Shown in pieces: positions 708 through 59,942 of a stretch of DNA of 64,000 bases. This DNA comes from Escherichia phage REP2. The stretch lies in the sequence record OQ174501.1, one strand, 5' to 3'. Numbering within the stretch: position 1 is the stretch's first letter; every line of letters begins with the position of its first letter. The notes under the pieces are model-generated. The model saw only the letters and a list, made by a program, of their open reading frames with translations, was not told the origin of the DNA and searched no databases. A program made the translations under genes and the position numbers.

Positions 708-1331
708 ATGAAAAAATATATAACTTATTTAACAATATATAGTGGAGATAAACTTCCTCCTTTTTATATTGGATCTACGTCTTTAGATAGGCATTTAGCT
801 GGATATCATGGTTCAGTTTTATCTAAAAAGTATAAGAAAATTTATAATAAAGAGCTTTCAGATAATCCTCACTTATTTGATTCATGTATTTTAGCTGAAT
901 TTGATACGCGTGAAGAAGCTATTAAATGCGAGTTATATTATCAACGATTGCATGATGCAGTTAAAAATCCATTATTCTTTAATATGTCATATGCTGCTCC
1001 AAAAGGTTCATTTGGAAGAGATAATAAAGGACAAAATCATCCATTATATGGTTCTCATAATTGTAAAGGAAATATACATTCACATGATCCATTAACAGGA
1101 AAATCTGCCTTTTTGCCTTATATTCCAGAAGGTTATGTAAAAGGAAGGTCAAATAAATTTAAAGCTTCATCACATAATAAAGGTAAAAAATGGTATAATA
1201 ACGGAGTTAAGCAAATGTTATGTCATGAACCTCCTGGTCCTGAATGGACAAAAGGAAAAATTAAAGAACTGGTTTCAAAAGCAGCTAAATTAGGATGGAA
1301 AAGACACCATGAAAATACTAAACTTGGGTGA
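708..1331 (+). CDS. putative free-standing GIY-YIG family homing endonuclease-like protein (seg-like)
   Basis: 207 aa; N-terminal YITYLTIY...FYIGST (GIY/YIG-like), downstream conserved R, E and N positions, C-terminal NUMOD-like G-x-NHPLYG and KGKKWYNNG motifs. Confidence 0.45.
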   Translation: MKKYITYLTIYSGDKLPPFYIGSTSLDRHLAGYHGSVLSKKYKKIYNKELSDNPHLFDSCILAEFDTREEAIKCELYYQRLHDAVKNPLFFNMSYAAPKGSFGRDNKGQNHPLYGSHNCKGNIHSHDPLTGKSAFLPYIPEGYVKGRSNKFKASSHNKGKKWYNNGVKQMLCHEPPGPEWTKGKIKELVSKAAKLGWKRHHENTKLG

Positions 1332-2775: not shown

Positions 2776-4460
2776 AGAATTTTAAACTAAACCGAGTTAG
2801 GTATCAAAATATAATGTCAGTAGGTGGAAATCCTATTGACATTCAATTAGATAAGGTTCAAAAAACTCTTATTACTGGACGAAATGGCGGTGGTAAGTCT
2901 ACTATGTTAGAAGCCATCACATTTGGGCTTTTTGGCAAGCCATTTCGTGATGTAAAGAAAGGTCAATTAATAAACAGCACAAATAAGAAAGAACTTTTAG
3001 TTGAACTGTGGATGGAATATGATGAGAAAAAGTACTATATCAAAAGAGGACAAAAACCAAACGTTTTCGAAATCACCGTTAACGGTACACGTCTTAATGA
3101 ATCTGCCAGCAGTAAAGATTTCCAAGCAGAATTTGAACAGCTTATCGGAATGTCATATGCCAGTTTCAAGCAGATTGTTGTCCTTGGTACAGCAGGGTAT
3201 ACCCCTTTCATGGGTTTGTCGACCCCTGCGCGAAGAAAGCTTGTGGAAGACCTGCTTGAGGTAGGAACATTAGCTGAAATGGATAAGCTTAATAAAGCAC
3301 TAATACGTGAATTAAATTCGCAGAACCAAGTGCTTGATGTTAAAAAAGATAGTATTATCCAACAAATTAAAATATATAATGATAACGTTGAACGCCAGAA
3401 AAAATTAACGGGTGACAACCTTACACGTCTACAAAATATGTATGATGATTTGGCAAAAGAAGCTAGAACGCTAAAATCGGAAATAGAAGAAGCTAACGAA
3501 AGATTAGTTAATATTGTTTTGGATGAAGACCCGACTGATGCATTTAATAAAATCGGTCAAGAAGCAGTTTTAATTAAATCAAAAATTGACTCGTATAATA
3601 AAGTCATTAATATGTATCACGAAGGTGGATTATGTCCAACCTGTTTGTCACAATTAAGTTCCGGTGATAAAGTTGTTTCTAAAATTAAAGATAAAGTTTC
3701 TGAATGTACGCATTCGTTTGAACAGCTTTCAACACACCGTGATAATTTAAAAGTTCTTGTTGATGAATACCGAGATAATATTAAAACTCAGCAGTCGTTG
3801 GCAAATGATATTCGCAATAAAAAGCAATCTCTAATCACGACGGTAGATAAAGCTAAAAAAGTTAAAGCAGCTATAGAAAAAGCATCTTCTGAGTTTATTG
3901 ACCATGCTGATGAAATAGCACTGCTTCAAGAAGAACTTGATAAAATTGTTAAGACAAAAACTAATTTAGTAATGGAAAAATACCACCGAGGAATTTTGAC
4001 TGATATGCTCAAAGATTCTGGTATTAAAGGTGCTATTATTAAAAAGTACATTCCATTATTTAATAAGCAGATTAACCATTATCTTAAAATAATGGAAGCG
4101 GATTATGTGTTTACATTAGATGAAGAATTTAATGAGACAATTAAATCCCGTGGTCGTGAAGATTTTAGTTATGCTTCATTCAGTCAAGGTGAAAAAGCAC
4201 GAATTGATATTGCTCTTTTATTTACTTGGCGTGATATTGCTGAAAAAGTTTCAGGTGTTAAAATAAGTTGTTTATTTCTTGATGAAGTGTATGACGGTGC
4301 ATTTGATGCTGAAGGCATTAAAAATGTAGCTAAAATTTTAGATGGTTTGAAGGATACCAACTTCTTCATAATTTCGCATAAAGACCATGATCCGCAGGAT
4401 TATGGACAGCATATTAAAATGGAAAAAGTTGGTAGATTTAGTGTTGCCACTATTAATTAA
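2772..4460 (+). CDS. 46: recombination endonuclease subunit gp46 (Rad50/SbcC-like ATPase)
   Basis: 562 aa; Walker A GRNGGGKST, long central coiled-coil, zinc-hook-like CPTC, C-terminal LFLDEV signature region; apparent GTG start. Confidence 0.9.
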   Translation: MKNFKLNRVRYQNIMSVGGNPIDIQLDKVQKTLITGRNGGGKSTMLEAITFGLFGKPFRDVKKGQLINSTNKKELLVELWMEYDEKKYYIKRGQKPNVFEITVNGTRLNESASSKDFQAEFEQLIGMSYASFKQIVVLGTAGYTPFMGLSTPARRKLVEDLLEVGTLAEMDKLNKALIRELNSQNQVLDVKKDSIIQQIKIYNDNVERQKKLTGDNLTRLQNMYDDLAKEARTLKSEIEEANERLVNIVLDEDPTDAFNKIGQEAVLIKSKIDSYNKVINMYHEGGLCPTCLSQLSSGDKVVSKIKDKVSECTHSFEQLSTHRDNLKVLVDEYRDNIKTQQSLANDIRNKKQSLITTVDKAKKVKAAIEKASSEFIDHADEIALLQEELDKIVKTKTNLVMEKYHRGILTDMLKDSGIKGAIIKKYIPLFNKQINHYLKIMEADYVFTLDEEFNETIKSRGREDFSYASFSQGEKARIDIALLFTWRDIAEKVSGVKISCLFLDEVYDGAFDAEGIKNVAKILDGLKDTNFFIISHKDHDPQDYGQHIKMEKVGRFSVATIN

Positions 4461-5170
4461 TGTTTGTGCTTACAGTTATCATTATGCCACCTTGATAAAT
4501 TTCCGAAAGTGGTAACTTTACCGCAATGGACGCAAGTACCAGTCTTTTCAGTTTTCTTGCGTCCATTTGGATTTTTCTTGCAGAAATTTCTATGCGCTGC
4601 GATAACGCATTTCTTGCCTATCATTCCGCAGAATTCGCAGGATGTTTCTTCAAGAACGATTGCTTTAAGCCCGTTTGAGATATTATTTCTGTGTTCTTTA
4701 GACATTGGTGGTCTAACTTTAGGATTAGGGTGATTTGGGCAGTTATCAAAATGCCAACGATTCATATTCCCGCTTAATCCAGACTTACCGCAATGAGGAC
4801 AAGTTAGTCTTGCTTTATTAGCTACTGCATCAGACATTTTCTTTCGTGTCTCTTGGGAGAATTCTTTGTTCTTTTCTATTTCCCAGAGTTTACGACGAAT
4901 CCAACCGAAAGTTTTATTGTTGCGTTTAGCGTATTTCGTAGAAACTGTCATCATGTTAGCAGCATAGACTAATTTTGGTTCAGAAGGATAAATTTTTACT
5001 AAAAGTTGATGAGCTACATAGTGCTCTTCTGGTGTTAAATCTACTAAGTTTGAAGCATCATCACTTCCATTTAAACAGCGCGGTATAATGTGATGAGATT
5101 CAGTATAACAATCAAGTTTTCGAGATTTAGCATTAGAGATTAACTTTTCATAAATTAGTTTATAATTCAT
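4457..5170 (-). CDS. free-standing HNH family homing endonuclease with three C-terminal CxxC zinc-finger repeats
   Basis: 237 aa on the opposite strand to all neighbours; HNH motif SHHIIPRCLNGSDDASNLVDLTPEEHYVAH; repeats CPHCG..RWHFDNC; SD AAGGAT upstream of the ATG. Confidence 0.7.
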   Translation of the reverse strand: MNYKLIYEKLISNAKSRKLDCYTESHHIIPRCLNGSDDASNLVDLTPEEHYVAHQLLVKIYPSEPKLVYAANMMTVSTKYAKRNNKTFGWIRRKLWEIEKNKEFSQETRKKMSDAVANKARLTCPHCGKSGLSGNMNRWHFDNCPNHPNPKVRPPMSKEHRNNISNGLKAIVLEETSCEFCGMIGKKCVIAAHRNFCKKNPNGRKKTEKTGTCVHCGKVTTFGNLSRWHNDNCKHKH

Positions 5171-5221
5171 AATATATCCTTTTGATACAGCGAGTGATAA
5201 ACATATTTATACGGAGGAACT

Positions 5222-5413
5222 GTGGCAGAATATTCAACTGGACAGCATCTATTAACTATTCCTGAAATAAAACGATATATTCTGAGAAATAATTTTTCTA
5301 ATGAAGAGCATATAGTTACTGAATCTATGCTTAGGAATGCATTTAAAGCAGAATATACAAAAATAATGTCCAATAGAAATGAAGCTTGGACTGTTACTGA
5401 TTATTATGACTAA
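5222..5413 (+). CDS. hypothetical small early protein
   Basis: 63 aa ORF with GGAGGA SD and GTG start. Confidence 0.4.
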   Translation: MAEYSTGQHLLTIPEIKRYILRNNFSNEEHIVTESMLRNAFKAEYTKIMSNRNEAWTVTDYYD

Positions 5414-5867: not shown

Positions 5868-6554
5868 ATGAAACTGTCTAAAGATACTACTGCTCTGCTG
5901 AAAAATTTCGCTACTATTAACTCTGGTATTATGCTTAAATCCGGTCAATTTATTATGACTCGTGCGGTTAATGGTACAACTTATGCAGAAGCGAATATTT
6001 CTGACGTTATTGATTTTGATGTAGCAATTTACGATTTGAACGGTTTTCTCGGTATTCTGTCTCTAGTTAATGATGATGCAGAAATTTCCCAGTCAGAAGA
6101 TGGTAATATTAAAATTGCTGATGCTCGTTCAACAATTTTTTGGCCAGCAGCCGATCCGAGTACAGTAGTTGCTCCTAATAAACCAATTCCATTCCCGGTA
6201 GCATCTGTTGTTACTGAAATTAAAGCTGAAGACCTTCAACAACTGTTGCGTGTATCTCGTGGTCTGCAAATTGATACAATTGCTATCACGGTAAAAGAAG
6301 GTAAAATCGTAATTAACGGTTTTAATAAAGTAGAAGATTCTGCTCTGACCCGTGTTAAATATTCTTTGACTCTTGGTGATTATGATGGTGAAAATACATT
6401 TAATTTTATTATCAATATGGCAAATATGAAAATGCAACCAGGAAATTATAAACTTCTGCTCTGGGCAAAAGGTAAACAAGGTGCTGCTAAATTTGAAGGT
6501 GAACACGCGAATTATGTAGTAGCTCTTGAAGCTGATTCTACCCACGATTTTTAA
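5868..6554 (+). CDS. 45: sliding clamp gp45
   Basis: 228 aa; position upstream of 44/62; matches T4 gp45 size. Confidence 0.9.
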   Translation: MKLSKDTTALLKNFATINSGIMLKSGQFIMTRAVNGTTYAEANISDVIDFDVAIYDLNGFLGILSLVNDDAEISQSEDGNIKIADARSTIFWPAADPSTVVAPNKPIPFPVASVVTEIKAEDLQQLLRVSRGLQIDTIAITVKEGKIVINGFNKVEDSALTRVKYSLTLGDYDGENTFNFIINMANMKMQPGNYKLLLWAKGKQGAAKFEGEHANYVVALEADSTHDF

Positions 6555-6556
6555 TA

Positions 6557-6574
6557 GAGGGCTTCGGCCCTTTA
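6557..6574 (+). terminator. rho-independent terminator (GGGC-UUCG-GCCC hairpin plus UUU)
   Basis: agggcttcggcccttt directly after the gene 45 stop. Confidence 0.55.
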
Positions 6575-6605
6575 TAATTTACACTAAAACTTGAATGAGG
6601 AAATT

Positions 6606-7565
6606 ATGATTACCGTAAATGAAAAAGAACACATTCTTGAACAGAAATATCGTCCATCTACTATCGATGAATGTATTCTTCCCGCCTTTGATAAAGAAAC
6701 CTTTAAATCTATTACAAGTAAAGGTAAGATTCCACATATTATTCTTCATTCTCCTTCTCCAGGAACAGGTAAAACAACTGTAGCAAAAGCATTGTGTCAT
6801 GATGTAAATGCTGATATGATGTTTGTGAATGGGTCAGATTGTAAAATTGATTTCGTTCGCGGTCCTTTGACTAATTTTGCCAGCGCAGCTTCATTTGATG
6901 GTCGTCAAAAAGTAATCGTTATTGATGAATTTGACCGTTCAGGGCTAGCAGAGTCTCAGCGACATCTTCGTTCCTTTATGGAAGCTTATAGTTCAAACTG
7001 TAGTATTATTATTACTGCTAACAATATTGATGGTATTATTAAACCACTTCAGTCACGCTGCCGAGTTATTACATTCGGTCAACCGACCGATGAAGATAAA
7101 ATTGAAATGATGAAGCAGATGATTCGTCGATTGACTGAAATCTGCAAGCATGAAGGAATTGCTATAGCTGATATGAAAGTTGTAGCAGCTTTGGTTAAAA
7201 AGAATTTTCCTGATTTTCGTAAAACTATTGGCGAGCTCGATAGTTATTCATCTAAAGGTGTTTTGGATGCTGGTATTTTATCACTGGTTACTAACGATCG
7301 TGGTGCTATTGATGATGTTCTTGAGTCTCTCAAAAATAAAGATGTTAAACAGCTCAGAGCTTTAGCACCAAAATATGCAGCTGATTATTCGTGGTTCGTA
7401 GGTAAACTTGCCGAAGAAATCTATACACGCGTAACTCCGCAAAGTATTATTCGTATGTATGAAATTGTTGGTGAAAATAACCAGTATCATGGAATTGCGG
7501 CTAATACTGAATTACATTTAGCATATCTTTTCATTCAATTGGCATGTGAAATGCAGTGGAAGTGA
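6606..7565 (+). CDS. 44: clamp loader large subunit gp44 (AAA+ ATPase)
   Basis: 319 aa from the ATG at 6606 (GAGG SD); Walker [15 protein letters not shown] Walker B, SRC motif. Confidence 0.9.
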
Positions 7566-8131: not shown

Positions 8132-8500
8132 ATGATTGAAATTACTATTAAAAAACCTGAAGATTTTCTGAAAGTAAAAGAAACTTTGACTCGTATGGGA
8201 ATTGCTAATAATAAAGATAAAGTTCTGTATCAGTCCTGTCATATTCTTCAGAAAAAAGGACTATACTATATCGTTCATTTTAAAGAAATGCTTCGTATGG
8301 ATGGCCGTCAAGTTGAAATGACAGAAGAAGATGAAGTTCGTCGTGATTCGATTGCATGGCTGTTAGAAGATTGGGGACTGATTGAAATCGTTCCTGGACA
8401 AAGAACTTTTATGAAAGATTTAACTAATAACTTCCGAGTTATTTCTTTTAAACAAAAACATGAATGGAAACTCGTTCCTAAATATACGATTGGTAATTAA
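8132..8500 (+). CDS. regA: translational repressor RegA
   Basis: 122 aa; follows gene 62 and precedes gene 43 as in T4. Confidence 0.8.
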   Translation: MIEITIKKPEDFLKVKETLTRMGIANNKDKVLYQSCHILQKKGLYYIVHFKEMLRMDGRQVEMTEEDEVRRDSIAWLLEDWGLIEIVPGQRTFMKDLTNNFRVISFKQKHEWKLVPKYTIGN

Positions 8501-8502
8501 GC

Positions 8503-8526
8503 AAGGGGCTTCGGCCCCTTATTTGG
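8503..8526 (+). terminator. terminator-like hairpin (GGGGC-UUCG-GCCCC) with U-rich tail
   Basis: aaggggcttcggccccttatttgg after the regA stop. Confidence 0.45.
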
Positions 8527-11275: not shown

Positions 11276-11288
11276 TAGAATAAATCTA

Positions 11289-11309
11289 GGGACCTCCGGG
11301 TCCCTTTTT
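11289..11309 (+). terminator. rho-independent terminator (GGGACC-UCCG-GGUCCC plus U5)
   Basis: gggacctccgggtcccttttt after the gene 43 stop. Confidence 0.7.
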
Positions 11310-11391
11310 CATACAAGTAATATAAATCTATACTTATGAAAAACAGATGATTCTGGACCTTTAGAATTCCCTAAAAAATTTTCACAAAACT

Positions 11392-11421
11392 GTTTACAAG
11401 ACTGTTCTTCCATGGTACTAT
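11392..11421 (+). promoter_or_regulatory. T4-type early promoter (GTTTAC -35, 18-bp spacer, TACTAT -10)
   Basis: gtttac 11392-11397 and tactat 11416-11421; part of a roughly 85-bp cassette repeated at 38521-38607. Confidence 0.5.
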
Positions 11422-11455
11422 ACAACTATCAACTAATACGGATTTGGAGAATAAA

Positions 11456-11692
11456 ATGAAAATTATTATGGGATGCTTAGCAGTTTGTTTAGTTGCATTA
11501 GCAGCAGTTCCATTTGTTAGTGTTGAAAATGATACTCAACCTGTGATTGAATCTAGCACCGTTATTCACACTAATGGTAAAATATCAGTTAAAATTGATG
11601 ATAATCTTCATGTGAATACAAATGGATCTTTAGGTGTGCAAATGGGTAATACCTGCATAAGCACTACTGGAGTAATTACTACTTGCATTTGA
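11456..11692 (+). CDS. hypothetical secreted small protein (signal-peptide-like N-terminus)
   Basis: 78 aa from the ATG at 11456 with GGAG SD; hydrophobic N-terminus MKIIMGCLAVCLVALAAVPF. Confidence 0.5.
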   Translation: MKIIMGCLAVCLVALAAVPFVSVENDTQPVIESSTVIHTNGKISVKIDDNLHVNTNGSLGVQMGNTCISTTGVITTCI

Positions 11693-11702
11693 GGAAATTA
11701 TT

Positions 11703-12495: not shown

Positions 12496-13236
12496 ATGAT
12501 TAGTGACTCTATGACAGTTGAAGAAATCCGTCTTCATTTGGGGCTTGCATTAAAAGAAAAAGATTTCGTAGTTGATAAAACTGGCGTTAAAACTATTGAA
12601 ATTATTGGCGCATCATTTATAGCAGATGAACCGTTTATTTTTGGCGCTCTTAATGATGAATACATTCAGCGTGAACTTGAATGGTATAAATCTAAGAGCT
12701 TGTTCGTTAAAGATATTCCGGGTGAAACACCGAAGATTTGGCAACAAGTAGCATCTTCTAAAGGTGAAATTAACTCGAATTATGGCTGGGCTATCTGGTC
12801 AGAAGATAACTATGCCCAGTATGATATGTGTTTAGCTGAACTTGGTCAAAATCCTGATTCTCGACGTGGTATCATGATTTATACTCGTCCATCCATGCAA
12901 TTTGACTACAATAAAGATGGTATGTCAGATTTCATGTGTACTAATACAGTACAGTACCTGATTCGTGATAAGAAAGTCAATGCGGTTGTTAGCATGAGAA
13001 GCAATGATTGCTGGGCAGGCTATCGTAATGATTATGCTTGGCAAAAATACGTACTAGATAAATTAGTATCTGATTTGAATGCAGGCGACCCATCGCGGCA
13101 ATATAAAGCAGGTTCTATTATATGGAACGTTGGAAGTCTTCATGTGTACGAAAATCAGTTTTATTTAGTTGACCATTGGTGGAACACCGGTGAGACTCAT
13201 ATTGCTAAAAAGGATTATACTGGAAAATGGAAGTAA
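12496..13236 (+). CDS. 42: dCMP hydroxymethylase gp42
   Basis: 246 aa; thymidylate-synthase-like fold signatures; T4 synteny and size. Confidence 0.9.
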   Translation: MISDSMTVEEIRLHLGLALKEKDFVVDKTGVKTIEIIGASFIADEPFIFGALNDEYIQRELEWYKSKSLFVKDIPGETPKIWQQVASSKGEINSNYGWAIWSEDNYAQYDMCLAELGQNPDSRRGIMIYTRPSMQFDYNKDGMSDFMCTNTVQYLIRDKKVNAVVSMRSNDCWAGYRNDYAWQKYVLDKLVSDLNAGDPSRQYKAGSIIWNVGSLHVYENQFYLVDHWWNTGETHIAKKDYTGKWK

Positions 13237-13867
13237 ATGTGCCACATGTTTATAAGTATAAACATCCTAAAACTAAAAAGTGGTATATAGGAAGTCATGA
13301 TGGTCACAACCCGAATTATGATGGTTCGGGTGTAGTTTGGCAACATGCTAAAAAGAAATATGGAATAAAATCCTTTAATAAAGAAATATTATATGAAGGA
13401 CCAATGTTTAGACAGGTTGAAGAAATTATTTTAACTTGTTTAGATGCTGCTAATTGTCCGGATTCATATAATTTAAAGAATGAAGCATGGGGAGGAAGTT
13501 TTCCAGGCAAATTAAATGGAATGTACGGTAAAAACTATCTCCAGAAGAAAGATATAAGTGCGGAAATGCCTTTCGTGGAATCAAGCGTCCTGATCATTCT
13601 AAAAGAATGAAAGGCGAAGGTAATCCAATGTATGGTAAAAATGAGCAGGCATATGGAATTATAAATCGAGCCAAGGAAAATTCTGGTAAAACTTATGAAG
13701 AAATTTTTGGCGTAGAAAAAGCTAAAATAATTAAAGAAACGATGTCTAAAAATCGTAAAGGAAAACCTCATAATTTGATAGAAAAAATATGTCCGCATTG
13801 CGGACTAAAAGGACGTGGGCCAAATATGACAAGATACCATTTTGACAAATGTAAGGCACTTAAATGA
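13227..13867 (+). pseudogene. GIY-YIG homing endonuclease (seg-like) interrupted by a frameshift (frame 0 13227-13610, frame +2 13532-13867)
   Basis: N-terminal VYKYKHPKTKKWYIGS GIY-YIG motif; NUMOD-like GMYGKN / GNPMYGKN repeats continue across a frame change at the A5 run 13530-13534; C-terminal CPHCG..RYHFDKC zinc finger. Confidence 0.6.
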
Positions 13868-16311: not shown

Positions 16312-17739
16312 GTGGTAGAAATTATTCTTTCTCATCTTATATTTGATCAAGCTTATTTTTCAAAAGTTTGGCCATATATGGATTCAGAATATTTTGAAAG
16401 TGGTCCAGCTAAAAATACATTCAAATTAATTAAATCTCATGTTAATGAGTACCATAGCGTTCCATCTATTAATGCGCTAAATGTTGCATTAGAAAATAGT
16501 TCATTTACTGAAACAGAATATTCTGGTGTAAAAACACTTATTTCAAAACTGGCTGATTCTCCAGAAGACCACAGCTGGTTAATAAAAGAAACAGAAAAAT
16601 ATGTTCAGCAAAGGGCGATGTTTAATGCTACGTCTAAAATAATCGAAATTCAAACCAATGCTGAGCTTCCTCCAGAAAAACGAAATAAGAAAATGCCAGA
16701 TGTAGGTGCTATTCCTGACATCATGCGCCAAGCATTATCAATTTCATTTGATAGCTACGTTGGCCATGATTGGATGGATGACTATGAAGCACGTTGGCTA
16801 TCTTATATGAATAAAGCTCGTAAGGTTCCATTTAGACTCAAAATTCTAAATAAAATTACAAAAGGCGGAGCTGAAACAGGAACACTGAACGTTTTAATGG
16901 CTGGCGTTAACGTTGGTAAATCATTAGGACTTTGTTCATTAGCAGCAGATTATTTGCAGCTTGGTCATAACGTTCTTTATATCTCCATGGAAATGGCAGA
17001 AGAAGTCTGTGCTAAACGTATTGATGCTAATATGCTTGATGTTTCTCTTGATGACATTGATGATGGACATATTTCTTACGCTGAGTATAAAGGAAAAATG
17101 GAAAAATGGCGTGAGAAATCTACTCTCGGTCGTTTAATCGTTAAGCAATATCCTACTGGTGGAGCAGACGCTAATACATTTCGATCACTTTTAAATGAAT
17201 TGAAGCTCAAAAAGAATTTTGTTCCAACAATCATTATTGTCGACTATCTAGGTATTTGTAAATCTTGCCGCATCAGAGTTTATTCAGAAAATAGTTACAC
17301 AACTGTTAAAGCTATTGCAGAGGAATTACGTGCTCTGGCTGTTGAAACAGAAACTGTTCTTTGGACTGCAGCACAGGTTGGTAAACAAGCTTGGGACTCT
17401 TCTGATGTTAACATGAGTGATATCGCAGAATCTGCTGGTCTTCCAGCAACAGCTGATTTTATGCTTGCAGTCATTGAAACCGAGGAGCTAGCAGCTGCTG
17501 AACAACAACTCATTAAGCAAATCAAATCACGATATGGTGATAAGAATAAGTGGAATAAGTTTTTGATGGGTGTTCAAAAAGGAAATCAAAAATGGGTAGA
17601 AATTGAACAAGATTCTACTCCAACAGAAGTGAGTGAAGTAGCGGGTTCACAACAGATTCAGGCTGAACAGAATCGCTATCAAAGAAACGAATCAGCTCGA
17701 GCTCAGTTAGATGCTTTGGCAAATGAATTAAAATTTTAG
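16312..17739 (+). CDS. 41: replicative DNA helicase gp41 (DnaB family)
   Basis: 475 aa; Walker A GVNVGKS; GTG start preceded by AAGGAG. Confidence 0.9.
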   Translation: MVEIILSHLIFDQAYFSKVWPYMDSEYFESGPAKNTFKLIKSHVNEYHSVPSINALNVALENSSFTETEYSGVKTLISKLADSPEDHSWLIKETEKYVQQRAMFNATSKIIEIQTNAELPPEKRNKKMPDVGAIPDIMRQALSISFDSYVGHDWMDDYEARWLSYMNKARKVPFRLKILNKITKGGAETGTLNVLMAGVNVGKSLGLCSLAADYLQLGHNVLYISMEMAEEVCAKRIDANMLDVSLDDIDDGHISYAEYKGKMEKWREKSTLGRLIVKQYPTGGADANTFRSLLNELKLKKNFVPTIIIVDYLGICKSCRIRVYSENSYTTVKAIAEELRALAVETETVLWTAAQVGKQAWDSSDVNMSDIAESAGLPATADFMLAVIETEELAAAEQQLIKQIKSRYGDKNKWNKFLMGVQKGNQKWVEIEQDSTPTEVSEVAGSQQIQAEQNRYQRNESARAQLDALANELKF

Positions 17740-17768
17740 TTTACAAGCTGACAAGACTATGGTATAGT
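17739..17768 (+). promoter_or_regulatory. T4-type early promoter embedded in an inverted repeat (PeSL-like)
   Basis: gtttac 17739-17744, tatagt 17763-17768; caagacta/tagtcttg inverted repeat flanks the -10. Confidence 0.5.
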
Positions 17769-17797
17769 AGTCTTGTTGGTTAAATGAGGAGATTGTT

Positions 17798-29461: not shown

Positions 29462-29965
29462 ATGATTAAAAATAATGCTGTTTATCAATTGAAAAAATTT
29501 GATGAAATTAAGAATTTTCCGGTACTGTCTAATACAGCTCATAATAAGTTTTGTGAACTTCTTGCTTTAACTGGCGGATATCCTTTTACTGTTATTAGTG
29601 TTAATAGCGGAATTCTTATCGGCATGATGTATATTGAAATTAGAAACTATTATGGAATGGTGTCATCGCTTATTATTTATGAAAAAGATTTTAGTCTATT
29701 GACAGAAATTGAAAAAGAAGAACAGGAAAAATCCCATATTGATATGGATTTAGTTTCTATGTATGTGGCACCAGTTGAAAAAATTGAAGACCCGACTGAT
29801 TTGTTGTGTAAGGCAGTTTACATTCGTCGTCCATTCGCGAATCCGGTCGGTGGTTGGGTAACTGACCAGTGGATTGAAGATGGCGTTGAACTTCTGAACG
29901 TAGTTCATGCTGGAGAATACTCTGTAGTTCCTCGTAGCGCAGTGATTAATGTTCGTGTAAGCTAG
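29462..29965 (+). CDS. hypothetical protein, paralog A with conserved C-terminal TDQW(I/V)EDGV module
   Basis: 167 aa ORF. Confidence 0.5.
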   Translation: MIKNNAVYQLKKFDEIKNFPVLSNTAHNKFCELLALTGGYPFTVISVNSGILIGMMYIEIRNYYGMVSSLIIYEKDFSLLTEIEKEEQEKSHIDMDLVSMYVAPVEKIEDPTDLLCKAVYIRRPFANPVGGWVTDQWIEDGVELLNVVHAGEYSVVPRSAVINVRVS

Positions 29966-29994
29966 TTTACAAACTCTTGGGACCAGAGTATAAT
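29965..29994 (+). promoter_or_regulatory. T4-type early promoter with inverted repeat around the -10 (PeSL-like)
   Basis: gtttac 29965-29970, tataat 29989-29994; gggacca/tggtcc inverted repeat flanks the -10. Confidence 0.55.
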
Positions 29995-30038
29995 GGTCCT
30001 GTGGAGTATAAAATCTTTTTAACAAGTGAGAGATAATT

Positions 30039-30530: not shown

Positions 30531-30702
30531 AGTTTAAAATTTTTTCATAAAACTATATACATCAGTAGTTGATTATGGTACTATATCAATATCAACTACT
30601 GATATAGAAAATAATTTGGAGAATAAAATGGAAAATTTGCTAAAGGTGCTGCTACTCTTCTGAAACGCATCGCTCCAATGTTCAATTAACGAGGAAATTG
30701 TA

Positions 30703-32155: not shown

Positions 32156-32175
32156 AAGGCCTTCGGGCCTTTAGC
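32156..32175 (+). terminator. terminator-like hairpin (GGCC-UUCG-GGCC) with U-rich tail
   Basis: aaggccttcgggcctttagcttt; same hairpin-ctttagcttt architecture as at 532-556. Confidence 0.4.
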
Positions 32176-34300: not shown

Positions 34301-34310
34301 TGAGGAAATT

Positions 34311-37450: not shown

Positions 37451-37466
37451 TTAACTAAGGAAAATT

Positions 37467-38034: not shown

Positions 38035-38524
38035 CTTGACTAGTGAAATGAAGGTCAAAATTGCTGATACAGCAAGATACTCTTTAAAACAAAACCCGAA
38101 CCAGGATAAAGCAGAAGTTATTGAAAGATGTCGTATCGCGGTGTACGCAGAGTTTTTTGTAGCAGATTGGCTAAACGGGTATGTTAACAAAGGACAAGAG
38201 GATGTTAATGACCCGTATACATACGCATGGGATGTATTGGCGCATCCAAGATACTGCGGGCTTCGTGTAGAAGTTAAGACACATCAAACTGACTCGCGTT
38301 GGATTTCTGTAACAACAGGATGCAGCGGAGAGTATCCATACGGTTCTGGAATAAATCTAGGGCCCATTCTGAATCATCAGGTCGCTGACTGTATAATTAT
38401 ATTCAACACTAAAGAAATTCACCCAGGTGTCATCCAGTACACTCCGAAGTTCATCGGTGATAGAGAAGACCTTCGTAAGGTTGTAAGAAAAAGCAACTAC
38501 AACGGATGGTATCTTTCCATTTAA
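37967..38524 (+). CDS. denB: endonuclease IV DenB-like
   Basis: 185 aa, matching T4 denB size and position downstream of rIIB. Confidence 0.5.
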   Translation: MQKTNPGLQRLFQIPTFTLSNSDLTSEMKVKIADTARYSLKQNPNQDKAEVIERCRIAVYAEFFVADWLNGYVNKGQEDVNDPYTYAWDVLAHPRYCGLRVEVKTHQTDSRWISVTTGCSGEYPYGSGINLGPILNHQVADCIIIFNTKEIHPGVIQYTPKFIGDREDLRKVVRKSNYNGWYLSI

Positions 38525-38540
38525 AAATTTTCACAAAACG

Positions 38541-38570
38541 GTTTACATACCACAAGGACCGTGGTACTAT
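38541..38570 (+). promoter_or_regulatory. T4-type early promoter (cassette copy)
   Basis: gtttac, 18-bp spacer, tactat; roughly 85-bp similarity to 11372-11458. Confidence 0.5.
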
Positions 38571-38604
38571 ACAACTATCAACTGATACGGATTTGGAGAG
38601 TAAA

Positions 38605-38868
38605 ATGAAATTTAAATTTTATTATGCTAAGCATAAAATAACTGATGAGTTTGTGTCAGTTGAATATTCTAGCGATGATGAAGGCATGATTTATACTCGC
38701 TTAGGATTATCGCATTGGGAGTCCGATCAGCCTTATTTTTCAACTCCTGAAGAAATTACACGCTTAGTTAATGGTCATATGAATGACCACTGGAATGTAA
38801 TTCTTTCAGATAGTCTTAAAGCGGCTATTAATAGTAATGAAATGAAAATCGCTGAGATTGAACTATGA
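38605..38868 (+). CDS. hypothetical protein
   Basis: 87 aa from the ATG at 38605 with GGAG SD. Confidence 0.45.
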   Translation: MKFKFYYAKHKITDEFVSVEYSSDDEGMIYTRLGLSHWESDQPYFSTPEEITRLVNGHMNDHWNVILSDSLKAAINSNEMKIAEIEL

Positions 38869-38951: not shown

Positions 38952-39046
38952 AAATTTTTAATTCTGTACTTATTGCTTGTGCGTGGTGGGTTGCACAAGT
39001 TTCGGCAGTAGTGATTGGTATTCACATTTATTACGAATATTTTTAA
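38948..39046 (+). CDS. tiny hydrophobic peptide (32 aa)
   Basis: ATGA-coupled; MKIFNSVLIACAWWVAQVSAVVIGIHIYYEYF. Confidence 0.3.
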   Translation: MKIFNSVLIACAWWVAQVSAVVIGIHIYYEYF

Positions 39047-39053
39047 AAAAGTT

Positions 39054-39083
39054 GTTTACAAGACTGTTCTTCCGTGGTACTAT
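39054..39083 (+). promoter_or_regulatory. T4-type early promoter
   Basis: gtttacaagactgttcttccgtggtactat, a 30-bp near-identical copy of 11392-11421. Confidence 0.5.
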
Positions 39084-39111
39084 TACCCTATCAACTACGG
39101 AGGAACAGAAA

Positions 39112-39225
39112 ATGAAAAAGATTGTTAAAGCTATATGGAATGTAGTTATAATACTAATAGTTTTGAGTATATTCCCAATCGTTTTAATGATTGATGTATT
39201 AAACGCTTACTTTGGATTTATGTGA
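39112..39225 (+). CDS. tiny hydrophobic membrane peptide (37 aa)
   Basis: GGAGG SD; MKKIVKAIWNVVIILIVLSIFPIVLMIDVLNAYFGFM. Confidence 0.4.
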   Translation: MKKIVKAIWNVVIILIVLSIFPIVLMIDVLNAYFGFM

Positions 39226-42140: not shown

Positions 42141-42167
42141 AGGGAGAGCCTCGGCTCTCCCTTTTTT
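42141..42167 (+). terminator. rho-independent terminator (GGGAGAGCC...GGCUCUCCC plus U6)
   Basis: agggagagcctcggctctccctttttt. Confidence 0.75.
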
Positions 42168-42191
42168 ATTTTAAAATTTTTTCACAAAACG

Positions 42192-42221
42192 GTTTACAAC
42201 CAAAGCATACTGTGGTACTAT
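42192..42221 (+). promoter_or_regulatory. T4-type early promoter (cassette copy)
   Basis: gtttac, 18-bp spacer, tactat; leader ctatcaaataaatgaactgaaac repeated at 42567-42590. Confidence 0.5.
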
Positions 42222-42270
42222 ACAACTATCAAATAAATGAACTGAAACAAACAACCCGGAGATACAAAAA

Positions 42271-42498
42271 ATGAAATTTAAAATCGAAAACGAAATCGTT
42301 AAAGCTAAAAATGCTCTGACTGCTAACAAACTGGTTGTAGATGGTATTGAATATGATATCTGTGGAGTTCGTGAAGAAAAACCTGGTGTTCTGACTTTCT
42401 TCACAATGATTTTTAAATTTAAAGGTGACACAGAATTCAAACAGTTTGATTTTGCCCATGAAGACGAAATCGAAGTTCGTAATCTGAACATTAAGTAA
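42271..42498 (+). CDS. hypothetical small protein (motA.1-like position)
   Basis: 75 aa ORF. Confidence 0.45.
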   Translation: MKFKIENEIVKAKNALTANKLVVDGIEYDICGVREEKPGVLTFFTMIFKFKGDTEFKQFDFAHEDEIEVRNLNIK

Positions 42499-42537
42499 GT
42501 ACTTTATTAGAGCTCTTGAAAAAGAGTGCAAAAAAGT

Positions 42538-42566
42538 GTTTACTTCTGCTTTAAACATGATACTAT
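42538..42566 (+). promoter_or_regulatory. T4-type early promoter for motA
   Basis: gtttac, 17-bp spacer, tactat. Confidence 0.5.
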
Positions 42567-42603
42567 AGACCTATCAAATAAATGAACTGAAACGGAGATT
42601 AAA

Positions 42604-43239
42604 ATGTCTAAAGTAACTTACATCATCAAAGCTTCTAACGATGTTCTGAATGAAAAAACTGCTGCGATTTTAATTACCATTGCTAAGAAAGATTTCATTA
42701 CAGCCGCAGAAGTTCGTGAGGTGCATCCAGATTTAGGTAATGCAGTAGTTAATAGTAATATTGGGGTATTGATTAAAAAAGGCCTGGTGGAGAAATCTGG
42801 TGATGGATTAATCATTACTGGTGAAGCTCAGGATATTATTTCAAATGCAGCAACTTTATACGCACAGGAAAACGCTCCGGAACTGCTGAAAAAACGAGCA
42901 ACTCGTAAAGCTCGCGAAATTACTTCTGATATGGAAGAAGATAAAGACTTCATGTTAAAACTTTTAGATGAAAATGGATTTGTTCTTAAAAAGGTTGAAA
43001 CTTACCGCAGTAACTATCTCGCTATTTTAGAAAAACGCACTCACGGAATTCGTAATTTTGAAATTAACAACAATGGAAATATGCGAATTTTTGGATACAA
43101 AATGATGGAACATCATATTCAGAAATTTACTGATATCGGAATGTCATGTAAAATCGCTAAAAACGGTAATGTGTATCTTGACATTAAACGCTCGGTAGAA
43201 AACATTGAAGCTGTAATCACTGTAGCATCTGAACTGTGA
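42604..43239 (+). CDS. motA: middle transcription activator MotA
   Basis: 211 aa; size and position match T4 motA. Confidence 0.8.
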   Translation: MSKVTYIIKASNDVLNEKTAAILITIAKKDFITAAEVREVHPDLGNAVVNSNIGVLIKKGLVEKSGDGLIITGEAQDIISNAATLYAQENAPELLKKRATRKAREITSDMEEDKDFMLKLLDENGFVLKKVETYRSNYLAILEKRTHGIRNFEINNNGNMRIFGYKMMEHHIQKFTDIGMSCKIAKNGNVYLDIKRSVENIEAVITVASEL

Positions 43240-58796: not shown

Positions 58797-58821
58797 GGGG
58801 ACCCTAGAGGTCCCCTTTTTT
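58797..58821 (+). terminator. rho-independent terminator (GGGGACC...GGUCCCC plus U6)
   Basis: ggggaccctagaggtccccttttttatttc after gene 32. Confidence 0.75.
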
Positions 58822-58845
58822 ATTTCAAAAATTTTTCATAAAACG

Positions 58846-58875
58846 GTTTACATCCTTGTCCTTCCATGGTACTAT
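58846..58875 (+). promoter_or_regulatory. T4-type early promoter (cassette copy)
   Basis: gtttac, 18-bp spacer, tactat; shares ccatggtactatacaactatca with 11411-11432. Confidence 0.5.
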
Positions 58876-58918
58876 ACAACTATCAGCAATACTGCTGATA
58901 ATTAAAGAGGAAAATAAT

Positions 58919-59149
58919 ATGGCTAAAGTTGATATTGACATCGTTGATTTTGAATATATTGAAGAAATTATTCGTAATCGTTATCCTGAACTTAGTATCA
59001 CAAGTATTCACGATGATCCCAATTATTGCAATTTTTCTATTGTCATTGAAGGTCCTCTTGAAGACCTCACCCGCTTTATGGCTAATGAATATTGTGATGG
59101 TATGGATTCTGAAGACGCAGAATTTTACATGGGATTGATTGAACAATAA
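58919..59149 (+). CDS. hypothetical small acidic protein
   Basis: 76 aa from the ATG at 58919 with GAGGA SD. Confidence 0.45.
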
Positions 59150-59195: not shown

Positions 59196-59561
59196 ATGTA
59201 TATTGGCAAAAAGTATGAGCTTGTTCCAAGACTTATTGATACATTTATTAATTATCGCCCACGTTCTAATTCATCAATAGTTAAAATTATTCAAGAAAAT
59301 GGTGGATGGTTTGAAGTTAAAGAAGCTTTCTTTGTTGATGGATTTAGAGTAATAAAACACATTGAATGCGCAAATGGAAAGCATTTTTACTTTAACGTTT
59401 GTGAAGACGAATTTCATTGTTTCCGCGAATATAAAGAACCTACTTCTGAAGAGGATGAAGTTAAAGACAAGGTTTCTGGCGTAACAAAAATTCACTGCAT
59501 TGTTGACGAAAATAATGTAGATGAAATCATTGAACTTTTGCGAAAAACTTTCAAAAAGTAG
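59196..59561 (+). CDS. hypothetical protein
   Basis: 121 aa ORF. Confidence 0.5.
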   Translation: MYIGKKYELVPRLIDTFINYRPRSNSSIVKIIQENGGWFEVKEAFFVDGFRVIKHIECANGKHFYFNVCEDEFHCFREYKEPTSEEDEVKDKVSGVTKIHCIVDENNVDEIIELLRKTFKK

Positions 59562-59590
59562 TTTACAACAGGGTAGTAGTGTGATACTAT
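59561..59590 (+). promoter_or_regulatory. T4-type early promoter within an imperfect inverted repeat (PeSL-like)
   Basis: gtttac, 18-bp spacer, tactat; gggtagtag/ctattaccc arms. Confidence 0.45.
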
Positions 59591-59620
59591 TACCCTATCA
59601 AAACTAATGGAGAAAAGAAA

Positions 59621-59689
59621 ATGTTCGCACCTTATATTATGGCAGCAGTTATGTTGGTCTGTTTATATCTTTTGATTAAAGCTTGCTAA
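59621..59689 (+). CDS. tiny hydrophobic peptide (22 aa)
   Basis: GGAG SD; MFAPYIMAAVMLVCLYLLIKAC. Confidence 0.3.
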   Translation: MFAPYIMAAVMLVCLYLLIKAC

Positions 59690-59699
59690 GGAGAATAAA

Positions 59700-59942
59700 A
59701 TGAGATTACAACGCCAGAGCATCAAAGATTCGGAAGTTAGAGGTAAATGGTATTTTAATATCATCGGTAAAGATTCTGAACTCATTGAAAAAGCTGAACA
59801 TCTTTTACGTGATATGGGATGGGAAGATGAATGCGATGGATGTCCTCTTTATGAAGATGGAGAAAGCGCAGGATTCTGGATTTACCATTCTGATGTTGAT
59901 CAGTTTAAAGCTGATTGGAAAACTGTGAAAAAGTCTATTTGA
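59700..59942 (+). CDS. hypothetical small protein
   Basis: 80 aa ORF with GGAG SD. Confidence 0.45.
   Translation: MRLQRQSIKDSEVRGKWYFNIIGKDSELIEKAEHLLRDMGWEDECDGCPLYEDGESAGFWIYHSDVDQFKADWKTVKKSI

Follow-up and report, generated by a model that had tools for sequence, protein, structure and literature searches.

The stretch of DNA considered here (the window, 64,000 nucleotides of Escherichia phage REP2, record OQ174501.1) matches Escherichia phage REP3 (genus Tequatrovirus) at 100% identity and is oriented along the early-gene strand. In the REP3 record promoters are not annotated and a few small ORFs are missing, and Rfam covariance models gave no match at the gathering threshold across the whole window. 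Gene 43 is followed by an intrinsic-terminator hairpin and then by a block of about 85 bp ending at the start codon of ORF78. The initial annotation had described this block as recurring with high identity at 38521-38607, with shorter versions at 39045-39111, 42176-42240 and 58836-58920 and a degenerate one at 30541-30630. The recurrence is real and the coordinates are correct throughout. The gap-free alignment of positions 11374-11458 with 38523-38607 has 71 of 85 bases identical; the identity is indeed high (68/72) outside the core of the spacer separating the -35 box from the -10 box, but within this 13-nt core it falls to the random level (3/13). The copy at 30541-30630 is degenerate in its -35, which reads ATATAC. 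One further member, at 42509-42606 (-35 at 42538), had been left out of the list.

A repeat finder assembled a 62-nt family with copies at 11374, 30537, 38523, 39036, 42174, 44983, 58828 and 59543, of which 44983 (61% identity) was moved to the promoters that are alike in consensus only. The sub-family comprises eight sites on the + strand with the pattern GTTTAC-N17/18-TGRTACTAT-N4-(C/A)TATCA, most of them terminated by a GGAG Shine-Dalgarno sequence and an ATG (Table 1). All eight cassettes combine an early promoter, an AT-rich upstream region and the Shine-Dalgarno sequence and start codon of the next ORF, and every repeat occupies an intergenic gap 5' of a small early gene, co-oriented with early transcription. 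GTACTATACAACTATCAACT occurs five times when up to three mismatches are allowed, and TGRTACTATNNNNNNATMMA occurs seven times, against 0.01 expected in each case, whilst GTTTAC-N17/18-TAYWAT has 13 exact sites against 0.24 expected, all 13 on the + strand. A generic sigma-70 hexamer scan of 28-46 kb (65 sites, 74 expected) was uninformative for DNA of this AT content, and only the extended T4-type patterns discriminate. The window holds 17 early promoters, eight in the sub-family and nine others alike in consensus only. Mean pairwise identity within the sub-family is 63% in the UP region, 43% in the spacer and 57% over the first 20 transcribed bases, compared with 38%, 34% and 31% among the other nine. 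The objection that the similarity might be limited to the consensus hexamers therefore fails: the likeness reaches the UP region, the extended -10 and the initial 11-20 bases of the transcript; the Shine-Dalgarno sequence and ATG are included in three copies. The upstream part reads AAAATTTTTCAYAAAAC or AAAAAGT, the -10 is preceded by TGG or TGA in all eight copies, and the block TGRTACTAT-N4-(C/A)TATCA is unvarying in seven sites.

Table 1. Promoter-leader cassettes, neighbouring modules and associated elements in the window
Feature	Position	Strand	Details
Intrinsic-terminator hairpin	11288..11310	+	AGGGACC/GGTCCCT + T-run; 3' of gene 43, ~85 nt before cassette 1 -35
Cassette 1 (gene 43 to ORF78/imm.1)	11374..11458	+	UP 11374-11391; -35 GTTTAC 11392-11397; TGG + -10 TACTAT 11413-11421; then leader; RegB-type Shine-Dalgarno GGAGAATAAAA 11446-11456; ATG 11456-11458
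ORF78	11456..11692	+	variable module behind cassette 1
Consensus-only early promoter 5' of dmd	17739..17776	+	inverted repeat around -10 TATAGT
Consensus-only early promoter 5' of motB	29965..29999	+	inverted repeat around -10 TATAAT
Cassette 2, degenerate (motB to cef)	30537..30630	+	-35 ATATAC 30555-30560; -10 TACTAT 30579-30584; GGAGAATAAAA 30618-30628; ATG 30628 starts 11-codon remnant ORF
Cassette 2 imperfect inverted repeat	30541-30580/30584-30623		40-nt arms; fold -24 kcal/mol, z -5.8
Cassette 3 (denB to ORF269c)	38523..38607	+	-35 38541-38546; -10 38565-38570; GGAGAGTAAAA 38595-38605; ATG 38605-38607
ORF269c-type module	38605..38868	+	behind cassette 3
Cassette 4 (ndd.5 to ndd.4)	39036..39114	+	-35 39054-39059; -10 39078-39083; ATG 39112-39114
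Cassette 5 (motA.1 to ORF75)	42141..42273	+	terminator 42141-42162 + T-run; -35 42192-42197; -10 42216-42221; leader with AAATAAATG; ATG 42271-42273
ORF75	42271..42498	+	only module between two cassettes
Cassette 6 (ORF75 to motA)	42509..42606	+	weak stem 42512-42527; -35 42538-42543; -10 42561-42566; GGAGATTAAAA 42594-42604; ATG 42604-42606
Cassette 7 (gene 32 to frd.3)	58797..58921	+	terminator 58797-58815 + T-run; -35 58846-58851; -10 58870-58875; leader hairpin 58878-58903; ATG 58919-58921
Cassette 8 (frd.2 to frd.1)	59543..59702	+	-35 59561-59566; -10 59585-59590; inverted repeat 59570-59580/59586-59596; first ribosome-binding site 59609-59623; unannotated 22-codon ORF 59621-59689; second ribosome-binding site GGAGAATAAAATG 59690-59702

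Knowledge of the T4 early promoters and of their extended consensus dates back to the 1980s; they are reportedly covered in work by Liebig and Rueger from 1989, by Wilkens and Rueger from 1994 and 1996 and by Miller and colleagues from 2003. The T4 GenBank and RefSeq records contain no promoter features, and a DksA RNA-seq paper yielded no usable promoter list. T4 early promoters are of the sigma-70 type with the -35 sequence GTTTAC (Hinton 2010, PMC2988021; Nolan 2006, PMC1524935), and have been described as UP/-35/TGn/-10 promoters with additional consensus (Hinton 2010, PMC2988021). The cassettes resemble them in hexamers, spacing, TGn, A/T-rich upstream element, extra consensus, strand and gene positions. 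The spacing TTTACn-17 nt-TAnnnT is kept, cassette 2 being the exception in its -35. Seven cassette sites that were compared are collinear with T4, lying 5' of the same genes (imm.1, cef, ndd.6, ndd.4, motA, frd.3 and frd.1) at an identity of about 90-100%, and the T4 counterpart of cassette 1 directly precedes imm.1. REP3 differs from T4 by one extra copy, cassette 6 with ORF75, and by minor differences in the leaders; nothing essential separates the two. Separating a paralogous TACTAT/CTATCAA sub-family from consensus-only promoters is a description made in this analysis and not a published classification.

A second sequence signature lies at the downstream end of the cassettes. In T4 the endoribonuclease RegB targets GG*AGRAYARAA in early translation-initiation regions (Uzan and Miller 2010, PMC3014915). 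Three perfect copies of GGAGRAYARAA exist in the 64 kb, and all are cassette ribosome-binding sites (11446, 30618 and 59690), with one-mismatch forms at the cassette sites 38595, 42594 and 59609; across the window, 17 matches with at most one mismatch compare with 9.7 expected. The cassette end GGAGAATAAAATG is a perfect RegB consensus positioned as the Shine-Dalgarno sequence of early genes, and so is a predicted target. Cassette 7 has GAGG instead of the RegB-type GGAG. The ribosome-binding site of motA, a classical RegB target, is the one-mismatch form found in cassette 6.

The copies are related to one another as a mosaic. The spacer of cassette 1 is identical to that of cassette 4 at 16 of 17 positions, when none of 20,000 random 17-mer pairs reached 13/17, and its leader, between +1 and the Shine-Dalgarno sequence, is identical to that of cassette 3 at 19 of 20; cassette 1 combines the spacer of one with the leader of the other. 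The upstream part of cassette 5 matches cassette 7 at 22 of 25 positions, 42558-42593 in cassette 6 repeats 42213-42248 in cassette 5 (36 nt, 92%), and the terminator and promoter of cassette 7 are 76% identical to 42134-42231. Eight of the 17 early promoters are paralogues, not mere consensus matches, and segments are exchanged among the copies.

The reading that we favour, with a probability of roughly three in four, is that the repeats are T4-type sigma-70 early promoters, with leader and translation-initiation region, which act as portable homology, because 20-90 near-identical bases precede many small non-essential genes. Functional convergence appears an unlikely substitute. On that account the sites have been held independently to the same optimal promoter and RegB-sensitive ribosome-binding site, indels adjoin them merely as the cassettes fill longer gaps among dispensable ORFs, and no role in recombination is needed. 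It draws on the fact that the conserved positions are known functional elements (UP, -35, TGn/-10 and GGAGRAYARAA), and a random spacer in the best pair would follow if conservation were confined to functional positions. Spacers are not known recognition elements, however, yet those of cassettes 1 and 4 are nearly the same, and the leader shared by cassettes 1 and 3 differs from those of other equally good cassettes.

It appears far more improbable that TGRTACTAT-N4-(C/A)TATCA is an operator, that is, a site for a phage regulator of an early-promoter sub-class (for example in Alt-dependent stimulation or early shut-off), rather than a relic of common descent or a recombination site. The block is constant in seven sites at positions where RNA polymerase needs no sequence beyond the -10. 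An operator would also accord with the selectivity of Alt, which stimulates some T4 early promoters but not others although their core elements are identical, and with the still unknown mechanism of early shut-off in T4 (PMC2988021). However, related cassettes in Salmonella phage S16 (Gelderlandvirus) and Citrobacter phage NM4.3 (Moonvirus) are without the conserved part 3' of TACTAT, having CATACCAA and not CTATCAA there, and this analysis gave no pointer to a binding protein.

Comparing the flanking genes with those of T4, RB14 and T2 (plus slur03; three to four genomes in all), a check that the initial annotation had proposed, confirmed that they vary, six of the eight cassettes adjoining an ORF-sized insertion, deletion or replacement. 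The proposal in the initial annotation that these are repeated elements of the shuffling type holds to this extent, but the excess of breakpoints does not survive. Six of eight sub-family junctions are hit against 26 of 83 promoter-less ones (Fisher p = 0.02), but a null weighted by intergenic length expects 4.5 of eight (P(>=6) = 0.24), so the enrichment is weak and not significant once intergenic length is counted. Sub-family junctions make up 1018 of 3549 intergenic bases, and it is difficult to tell the link between cassettes and indels apart from the effect of this large share, which is what convergence would predict. The majority of breakpoints lie at the ribosome-binding and start-codon end of the cassette, not at the promoter; four of five junction sets fall at 8-11-nt repeats around start codons, and the clean nucleotide-level junctions comprise four ORF-sized indels between ribosome-binding-site repeats and one between two promoters. 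Convergence gains from this as well, and selection for intact ORFs combined with short-repeat deletion would produce the start-codon pattern without any special role of the promoter.

Individual modules illustrate these junctions. ORF78 is missing in T4 and RB14, whilst T2 has an unrelated 83-aa ORF instead, and the edges of ORF78 are the repeats ATGAAAAT and AAATTATTATG. Mobility of ORF78 was considered and rejected: in about 325 phage records it has one place per record, at the same locus where comparable. ORF78 is thus a presence/absence polymorphism, with movement not evidenced. T4 retains only an 8-codon in-frame remnant of the ORF269c-type module, and RB14 and T2 carry an extra ORF, ORF266c, ahead of that module. 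In RB14 ORF266c lies between two CGGATT..GAG..AAATG sites, of which the REP3 sequence is a clean hybrid. The 22-codon ORF of cassette 8 is placed between CTAA(T)GGAGAA repeats, and a metagenomic relative has a third gene, AAA-ATPase-like, directly behind this cassette. In T2 an 89-aa ORF begins at the ATG of cassette 2 (30628), and a 980-bp deletion ends exactly at the -35 of the 29965 promoter 5' of motB. The queried regions were matched by 504-710 phage records.

ORF75, between cassettes 5 and 6, is missing in T4, RB14, T2 and slur03, all of which have a single cassette at its locus. Phages of two other genera share with REP3 the arrangement of cassettes on both sides of this ORF, in one instance at another locus. 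The S16 homologue lies between nrdC.11-like and nrdC.10-like genes and is flanked by two promoter-leader copies with about three differences from -10 to ATG; that of NM4.3 is likewise promoter-flanked. The leader motif AAATAAATG is common to the S16 copies and is confined in the REP3 window to the two ORF75 cassettes. The presence of this private motif on both sides of ORF75 at two different loci argues against convergence. The spacer found 5' of the ORF75 homologue in NM4.3 is found 3' of ORF75 in REP3, an arrangement that a circular intermediate integrating at varying crossover points would produce. Derivation of the T4 arrangement by simple excision between cassettes 5 and 6 was rejected, the T4 motA leader (CTACTGATACAGAATTAC) being unlike the leader of REP3 cassette 6. 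A tract 100% identical between REP3 and YUEEL01 begins at cassette 5 and continues through motA; it does not lie between two cassettes and is no proof of a cassette-delimited transfer, nor does it exclude one.

The remaining candidates for a vehicle are that the cassettes are themselves MITE-like mobile elements or are carried by homing endonuclease genes of the region. Short, repeated and indel-associated sequences might suggest this, as might the three homing-endonuclease genes of the window (708-1331, 4457-5170 and 13227-13610). The copies have neither terminal inverted repeats nor target-site duplications, however, and all share one orientation, that of transcription; no sub-family cassette has any of the three endonuclease genes as its neighbour, and the endonuclease-associated indels lie elsewhere (714-1309, 4444-5228 and 13232-13862). 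Both explanations were rejected on these grounds and have almost no probability left.

Several promoters are embedded in inverted repeats, as had been noted for 17739-17768, 29965-29994 and 59561-59590, and in each the repeat spans the -10 box. The first is a perfect 9-bp repeat (17751-17759/17768-17776; folding z -5.4), the second a perfect 6-bp repeat (29980-29985/29994-29999; z -3.9) and the third an 11-nt repeat at 91% (cassette 8; z -3.0). Clear stem-loops accompany cassettes 1 (as the upstream terminator), 2, 5, 7 and 8 and the promoters at 17739 and 29965, and the stem of cassette 6 is weak (z -0.07). The inverted-repeat and folding check found no stem-loop in cassette 3 (z -0.6) and no convincing one of the terminator type in cassettes 3 and 4. 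A scan of metagenomes for counterparts of cassette 8 gave 14 loci, about half of them T4-like, and IMG/VR only two, too few variants for covariation of the -10-spanning stem to be assessable; an alternative, still self-complementary version of the stem was found in RB14 only.

In cassette 4 the spacer is complementary to the cassette's own Shine-Dalgarno region, giving a 12-bp stem (z -2.3) which could form solely in RNA arriving from upstream. In T4, hairpins mask the ribosome-binding sites of the lysozyme gene e, gene 49 and I-TevI in read-through early transcripts, and a promoter within the hairpin yields open transcripts. Cassette 4 is similar in that its -35/-10 spacer pairs with the downstream Shine-Dalgarno region, and a like effect may be predicted from the sequence; the internal promoter is late or middle in the T4 cases and early in cassette 4.

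The whole composite matches the PeSLs described in RB49/phi1 (Arbiol et al. 2010, PMC2839356) and in PST/T4 and nt-1/KVP40 (Comeau, Arbiol and Krisch 2014, PMC4122927), and as such is already known. The cassettes fit the PST/T4 consensus TTTACW-N17-TAYWAT, to which an AT-rich stretch on the upstream side, a Shine-Dalgarno sequence and a start codon belong (Comeau 2014, PMC4122927). One PeSL sub-class has its stem-loop over the -10 box, and PeSLs are further characterized experimentally by excision as mini-circles and by terminator and promoter activity in reporters (Arbiol 2010, PMC2839356). The cassettes share with PeSLs the composite of AT-rich region, early promoter, Shine-Dalgarno sequence and start codon. 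The stem-loop that PeSLs carry before or across the promoter is clear in cassettes 1, 2, 5, 7 and 8, weak in cassette 6 and without a clear counterpart in cassettes 3 and 4. Like PeSLs, the cassettes are found 5' of small ORFs in hyperplastic regions, in six of eight cases adjoin indels and replacements between close relatives (not significantly above the length-weighted expectation), and in one case enclose an ORF between two elements where relatives have a single element. The denB-ndd locus is the region of the example in Fig. 6A of Comeau 2014 (PMC4122927). The location of the crossovers differs: Arbiol 2010 suggests the AT-rich upstream part, whereas those deduced here fall mostly in the ribosome-binding and start-codon end or the -10/initial-transcribed block. 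With this point and the length-weighted null as its two qualifications, the earlier interpretation is supported.

Portable homology remains the preferred reading, built on the observed repeat family, its T4 collinearity and mosaicism, the junction sequences and the flanking of ORF75 in three genera; from these we infer that the promoters are active and that RegB cleaves, as well as what the hairpins do and how the modules recombine, with promoter use, start sites and cleavage read from the sequence and from T4. Host RNA polymerase would use the cassette promoters immediately after infection, recognizing the A/T-rich UP element, the -35 GTTTAC and TGn with the -10 (mostly TGGTACTAT). The leader ends in a GGAG Shine-Dalgarno sequence which often fits the RegB target, so that a cassette with both promoter and RegB-type leader would first yield a burst of expression and soon afterwards have its message inactivated. 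Only read-through RNA from upstream would form the hairpins that lie upstream of the promoter or span it, and these hairpins probably terminate, attenuate or mask that RNA. ORF-sized modules would be gained, lost or swapped at the cassettes, with crossovers most often in the ribosome-binding and start-codon end and sometimes in the -10/initial-transcribed block.

As a discovery this carries little weight, since promoter/stem-loop shuffling was published for these phages in 2010 and 2014. A further reading, tentative and less likely than not, is that the main joints of ORF shuffling in T-even phages are the near-identical translation-initiation ends (RegB-type GGAGAATAAAATG and its neighbours) and the -10/initial-transcribed block, not promoter cores or AT-rich upstream parts, and that units of the ORF75 type travel with a leader of their own from locus to locus and across the genera Tequatrovirus, Moonvirus and Gelderlandvirus. 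Extended to several hundred Tequatrovirus genomes, the nucleotide-level junctions would sharpen the PeSL model.

In two sampled 4-kb pieces the window matches the record of Escherichia phage REP3 (OQ174502.1; Straboviridae, Tequatrovirus), on its reverse strand, at 100% identity, and REP3 is the name used here for the sequence; hundreds of T4-like coliphages match these pieces at 95-99%. Early transcription follows the + strand, on which the gene order is alpha-gt, 47-46-45-44-62-regA-43-imm-42-uvsX-41-61-56-modAB-dda-dexA-motB-cef-39-rIIA-rIIB-denB-ndd-52-motA-arn-asiA. Late tail-fibre genes follow on the opposite strand, a block to which the reversal of GC skew is confined, and then rnh-33-59-32-frd to the window end. 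Three homing-endonuclease genes, which T4, RB14 and T2 either lack or carry in a different form, are the source of the largest indels of the initial 15 kb; they bear no relation to the promoter cassettes. Gene 39 is unsplit (no gene 60/mobA insertion) and, relative to T4, REP3 is without dam, segF and segG.

Against an expectation of 0.24, the window has 13 matches to the T4/PST pattern GTTTAC-N17/18-TAYWAT of the literature, all of them on the + strand. When the 17 early-promoter-like sites of that strand are aligned by their hexamers, they fall into two groups. In all eight sites of the first, which with their leaders constitute cassettes 1-8, four variable bases separate TG(G/A)TACTAT from (C/A)TATCA; AAAATTTTTCAYAAAAC(G/T) lies upstream in most of them, and 7/8 have a GGAG Shine-Dalgarno. 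The nine of the second have TATAAT-like -10 boxes and, in the same alignment, no common sequence downstream of them. Identity within the first group is 63% in the UP element (A/T-rich, upstream of the -35), 43% in the spacer and 57% in the first 20 transcribed bases; the second group gives 38%, 34% and 31%, and random window 17-mers a mean of 27%. Similarity is not limited to the hexamers, so the outcome that the initial annotation had named as its refutation does not occur. The sites display every sequence feature by which T4 early promoters are recognised, and by analogy with T4 the cassettes would be active promoters.

Coordinates of promoters, repeats, hairpins and ORFs in the window
Feature	Location	Position	Strand
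Cassette 1, -35	gene 43/ORF78/imm.1	11392	+
Cassette 2, -35	motB/cef	30555	+
Cassette 3, -35	denB/ORF269c	38541	+
Cassette 4, -35	ndd.5/ndd.4	39054	+
Cassette 5, -35	motA.1/ORF75	42192	+
Cassette 6, -35	ORF75/motA	42538	+
Cassette 7, -35	gene 32/frd.3	58846	+
Cassette 8, -35	frd.2/frd.1	59561	+
Second-group promoters		17739, 21583, 23700, 25035, 28894, 29965, 34042, 45001, 55546	+
62-nt repeat family		11374, 30537, 38523, 39036, 42174, 44983, 58828, 59543	
Cassette 4 stem	ndd.4 promoter	39067-39105	
UUCG hairpins	after early genes	527-548, 6553-6574, 8500-8521, 32152-32173, 37433-37454, 37668-37689	
ORF78	upstream of imm.1	11456-11692	
ndd.6 homologue		38865-38951	
ORF75 module		42236-42557	
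22-aa ORF	frd.2-frd.1	59621-59689	
Homing-endonuclease genes		708-1331, 4457-5170, 13227-13610	

A repeat finder recovered one 62-nt family and a second, of 56 nt, spanning the -10 to the start codon. A 20-mer of the -10 and initial transcribed region has five occurrences at up to three mismatches and the degenerate pattern TGRTACTATNNNNNNATMMA seven, each against 0.01 expected. The initial annotation, which had listed the repeated cassettes as the kind of element proposed to mediate modular shuffling, had passed over a family member at 42509-42606. The degenerate copy that it placed at 30541-30630 is real and is also a long imperfect palindrome, and all three promoters that it put in inverted repeats (17739, 29965 and 59561) do lie in them, each repeat enclosing the -10 box and folding as RNA far better than shuffles (z -5.4, -3.9, -3.0). 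The high identity that it reported for a block of ~85 bp holds outside the spacer core: 11374-11458 and 38523-38607 agree ungapped at 71/85 positions, 68/72 outside the 13-nt core and 3/13 within it.

Similarity between the copies is patchy. The spacer of cassette 1 matches that of cassette 4 at 16/17 bases, a level to be compared with 20000 random 17-mer pairs, none of which reached 13/17, while its leader matches that of cassette 3 at 19/20. Cassette 5 has 22/25 upstream bases and an upstream terminator in common with cassette 7, and its leader in common with cassette 6. The simplest reading is segment exchange between cassette copies, and the mosaic is old, since the same one is present in T4.

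T4 early promoters combine UP, -35, TGn and -10 elements with additional consensus regions (Hinton 2010, PMC2988021); GTTTAC occupies -36 to -31, and many of these promoters are followed by novel ORFs (Nolan 2006, PMC1524935). In promoter-early stem-loops (PeSLs) an early promoter is combined with a stem-loop, for which five positions are possible, and the element ends in a Shine-Dalgarno and ATG; PeSLs are enriched ahead of ORFans, lie next to indels and are conserved over ~100 bp (Arbiol 2010, PMC2839356). A later study added PST/T4 to the class, giving TTTACW-N17-TAYWAT as the consensus and illustrating it at the ndd locus (Comeau 2014, PMC4122927). The REP3 cassettes share the composite structure and the flanked-ORF topology, and the initial reading of them as PeSL-like is supported; no stem-loop was found in cassette 3, however, and only a weak stem in cassette 6. 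Repeated cassettes are an ordinary feature of T-even genomes and have been described before.

Cassettes 5 and 7 are directly preceded by intrinsic terminators with T-runs, and cassette 1 has one ~85 nt upstream; stems cross the -10 in cassettes 2 and 8 and at promoters 17739 and 29965, and cassette 7 has a leader hairpin. The spacer and leader of cassette 2 are complementary to each other, with 40-nt arms (70%) and a folding energy of -24 kcal/mol (z -5.8). In cassette 4 the spacer TTCTTCCGTGGT pairs over 12 bp with the downstream Shine-Dalgarno region ACTACGGAGGAA (z -2.3), and a U-to-C change in RB14 strengthens this stem by turning a G.U into a G-C pair. RB14 cassette 8 (~1781-1850 of the RB14 locus; counterpart 59561-59600) differs in both spacer and initial transcribed sequence, and its arms are complementary again, GGCTAT..ATAGCC instead of GGGTA..TACCC, so that the -10-spanning stem is kept by a double change; this is a hint of selection for the stem, from a single variant only. 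Since the 5' arms precede the presumed start site, the stems can form only in read-through RNA from upstream, which they would likely terminate, attenuate or mask. The ribosome-binding site of cassette 4, for instance, would be masked in such RNA only. These putative hairpin functions draw on T4 biology. A second recurrent regulatory motif beside the promoters is a family of six near-identical hairpins, GGGCTTCGGCCC, with a UUCG tetraloop; the terminator scan caught the last two, the other four lying outside the scanned region.

The cassette ends themselves are recurrent. GGAGAATAAAATG closes cassettes 1 and 2 and stands also just before frd.1, and near variants close cassettes 3, 6 and 8. In early translation-initiation regions, strong intergenic sites of RegB/S1 cleavage follow the consensus GG*AGRAYARAA (Uzan and Miller, PMC3014915). 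The three perfect GGAGRAYARAA matches in the 64-kb window are all GGAGAATAAAATG cassette ends, and the remaining ends account for three matches with one mismatch, so the leader end is explained by a known function. The motif predicts RegB cleavage, by which early messages would be quickly inactivated. Separately, the ribosome-binding sites and first codons of gene 44 (6594-6639) and rIIA (34299-34344) are 83% identical over 46 nt (AATGAGGAAATTATGATTA...GAAAAAGAA); as both are classical RegA-repressed messages, this likeness may represent a common operator.

The whole window was aligned to T4, RB14 and T2, and its second half only to slur03. Behind cassette 1, 11464-11702 is missing from T4 and RB14, so that the cassette there would drive imm.1 directly; REP3 has the 78-codon ORF78 between repeats ATGAAAAT and AAATTATTATG, and T2 has in that slot an unrelated 83-codon ORF, similar in size. 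ORF78, whose next neighbours downstream are imm.1 and imm (superinfection immunity), starts with MKIIMGCLAVCLVALAA, which resembles a signal peptide or lipoprotein box; the ORF occurs in ~325 phage records. At cassette 2 an 89-codon T2 ORF starts at the cassette ATG, with an 11-codon remnant in REP3, T4 and RB14. Cassette 3 is followed by ndd.6 in T4, ORF266c and ndd.6 in T2, ORF266c and ORF269c in RB14, and ORF269c in REP3. ORF266c is flanked by two CGGATT..GAG..AAATG copies, of which the REP3 junction is a clean hybrid. T4 (24015-24026 region; counterpart 38605-38868) has an in-frame ORF269c deletion between AAATGAAA repeats, and its 8-codon MKIAEIEL* upstream of ndd.6 is the remnant of the 87-codon ORF269c of REP3, RB14 and RB51. 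The 28-aa ndd.6 homologue of REP3 (MSSLWWCFVWLISIPVICLTFTFVMRLL) is unannotated in its record.

Cassettes 5 and 6, with 36 nt in common at 92%, flank the 75-codon ORF75, where T4, RB14, T2 and slur03 have a single cassette; the exchange point lies on the left within a 23-nt -10/initial-transcribed block and on the right at CGGAGATTA. At cassette 8, RB14 and T2 are without the 22-codon ORF that lies between CTAA(T)GGAGAA repeats; this ORF, whose 22-aa product MFAPYIMAAVMLVCLYLLIKAC is hydrophobic, is unannotated in REP3 and present in T4 and slur03. A third state of the frd.1 promoter slot is seen in a T4-like metagenome contig (OJKJ01001446.1, 8125-8804), where a gene with Walker A/B motifs (GAAGIGKT ... 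LLIDDVD), AAA-ATPase-like, lies directly behind the frd.1-type promoter. Cassettes 4 and 7 showed no breakpoint in the small sample compared (T4, RB14, T2, slur03).

By junction count, breakpoints fall at 6/8 cassette junctions, against 26/83 promoter-less junctions and 3/9 with a consensus-only promoter (Fisher p = 0.02). The eight cassette junctions, however, make up 1018/3549 intergenic bases, and a null that weights each junction by its length plus a 70-nt margin expects 4.5 hits (P(>=6) = 0.24); since cassettes make up so large a share of intergenic sequence, 3-4 genomes do not suffice to tell enrichment from this effect of length. It is on the junction sequences and ORF75 that a role in recombination, with a mechanism proposed from sequence and T4 biology, rests.

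The ORF75 module is found in 190 phage records, at an identity of at least 99% in 126. In YUEEL01 it is 100% identical and adjacent gene 52 93-98%; the perfect tract begins in the terminator/UP part of cassette 5 and runs past the cassettes through motA, so this comparison is not decisive for cassette-bounded transfer. The ORF75 homologue of Salmonella phage S16 (Gelderlandvirus) occupies another locus, in the interval from an nrdC.11-like to an nrdC.10-like gene, and has a promoter-leader copy on either side; the two copies have ~3 differences from -10 to ATG, and both end in TTGGAGAATAAAATG. Their leaders contain AAATAAATG, found in the REP3 window only at the two ORF75-flanking cassettes. 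In Citrobacter phage NM4.3 (Moonvirus) the homologue lies in the 52-motA interval and is likewise bracketed by two promoters; the one upstream has the spacer TTCTGCTTTAAGAT, and the matching REP3 spacer, TTCTGCTTTAAAC, is downstream of ORF75. Such an arrangement would result if a circular intermediate had integrated at different crossover points, although other histories are possible.

The sole addition to the published PeSL picture is the position of the junctions, which in 4/5 junction sets fall in the translation-initiation end and not in the AT-rich upstream part. A tentative reading, to which we give a probability of roughly 0.3, makes ribosome-binding-site repeats the principal joints for shuffling and ORF75 a promoter-flanked unit that moves between genera.
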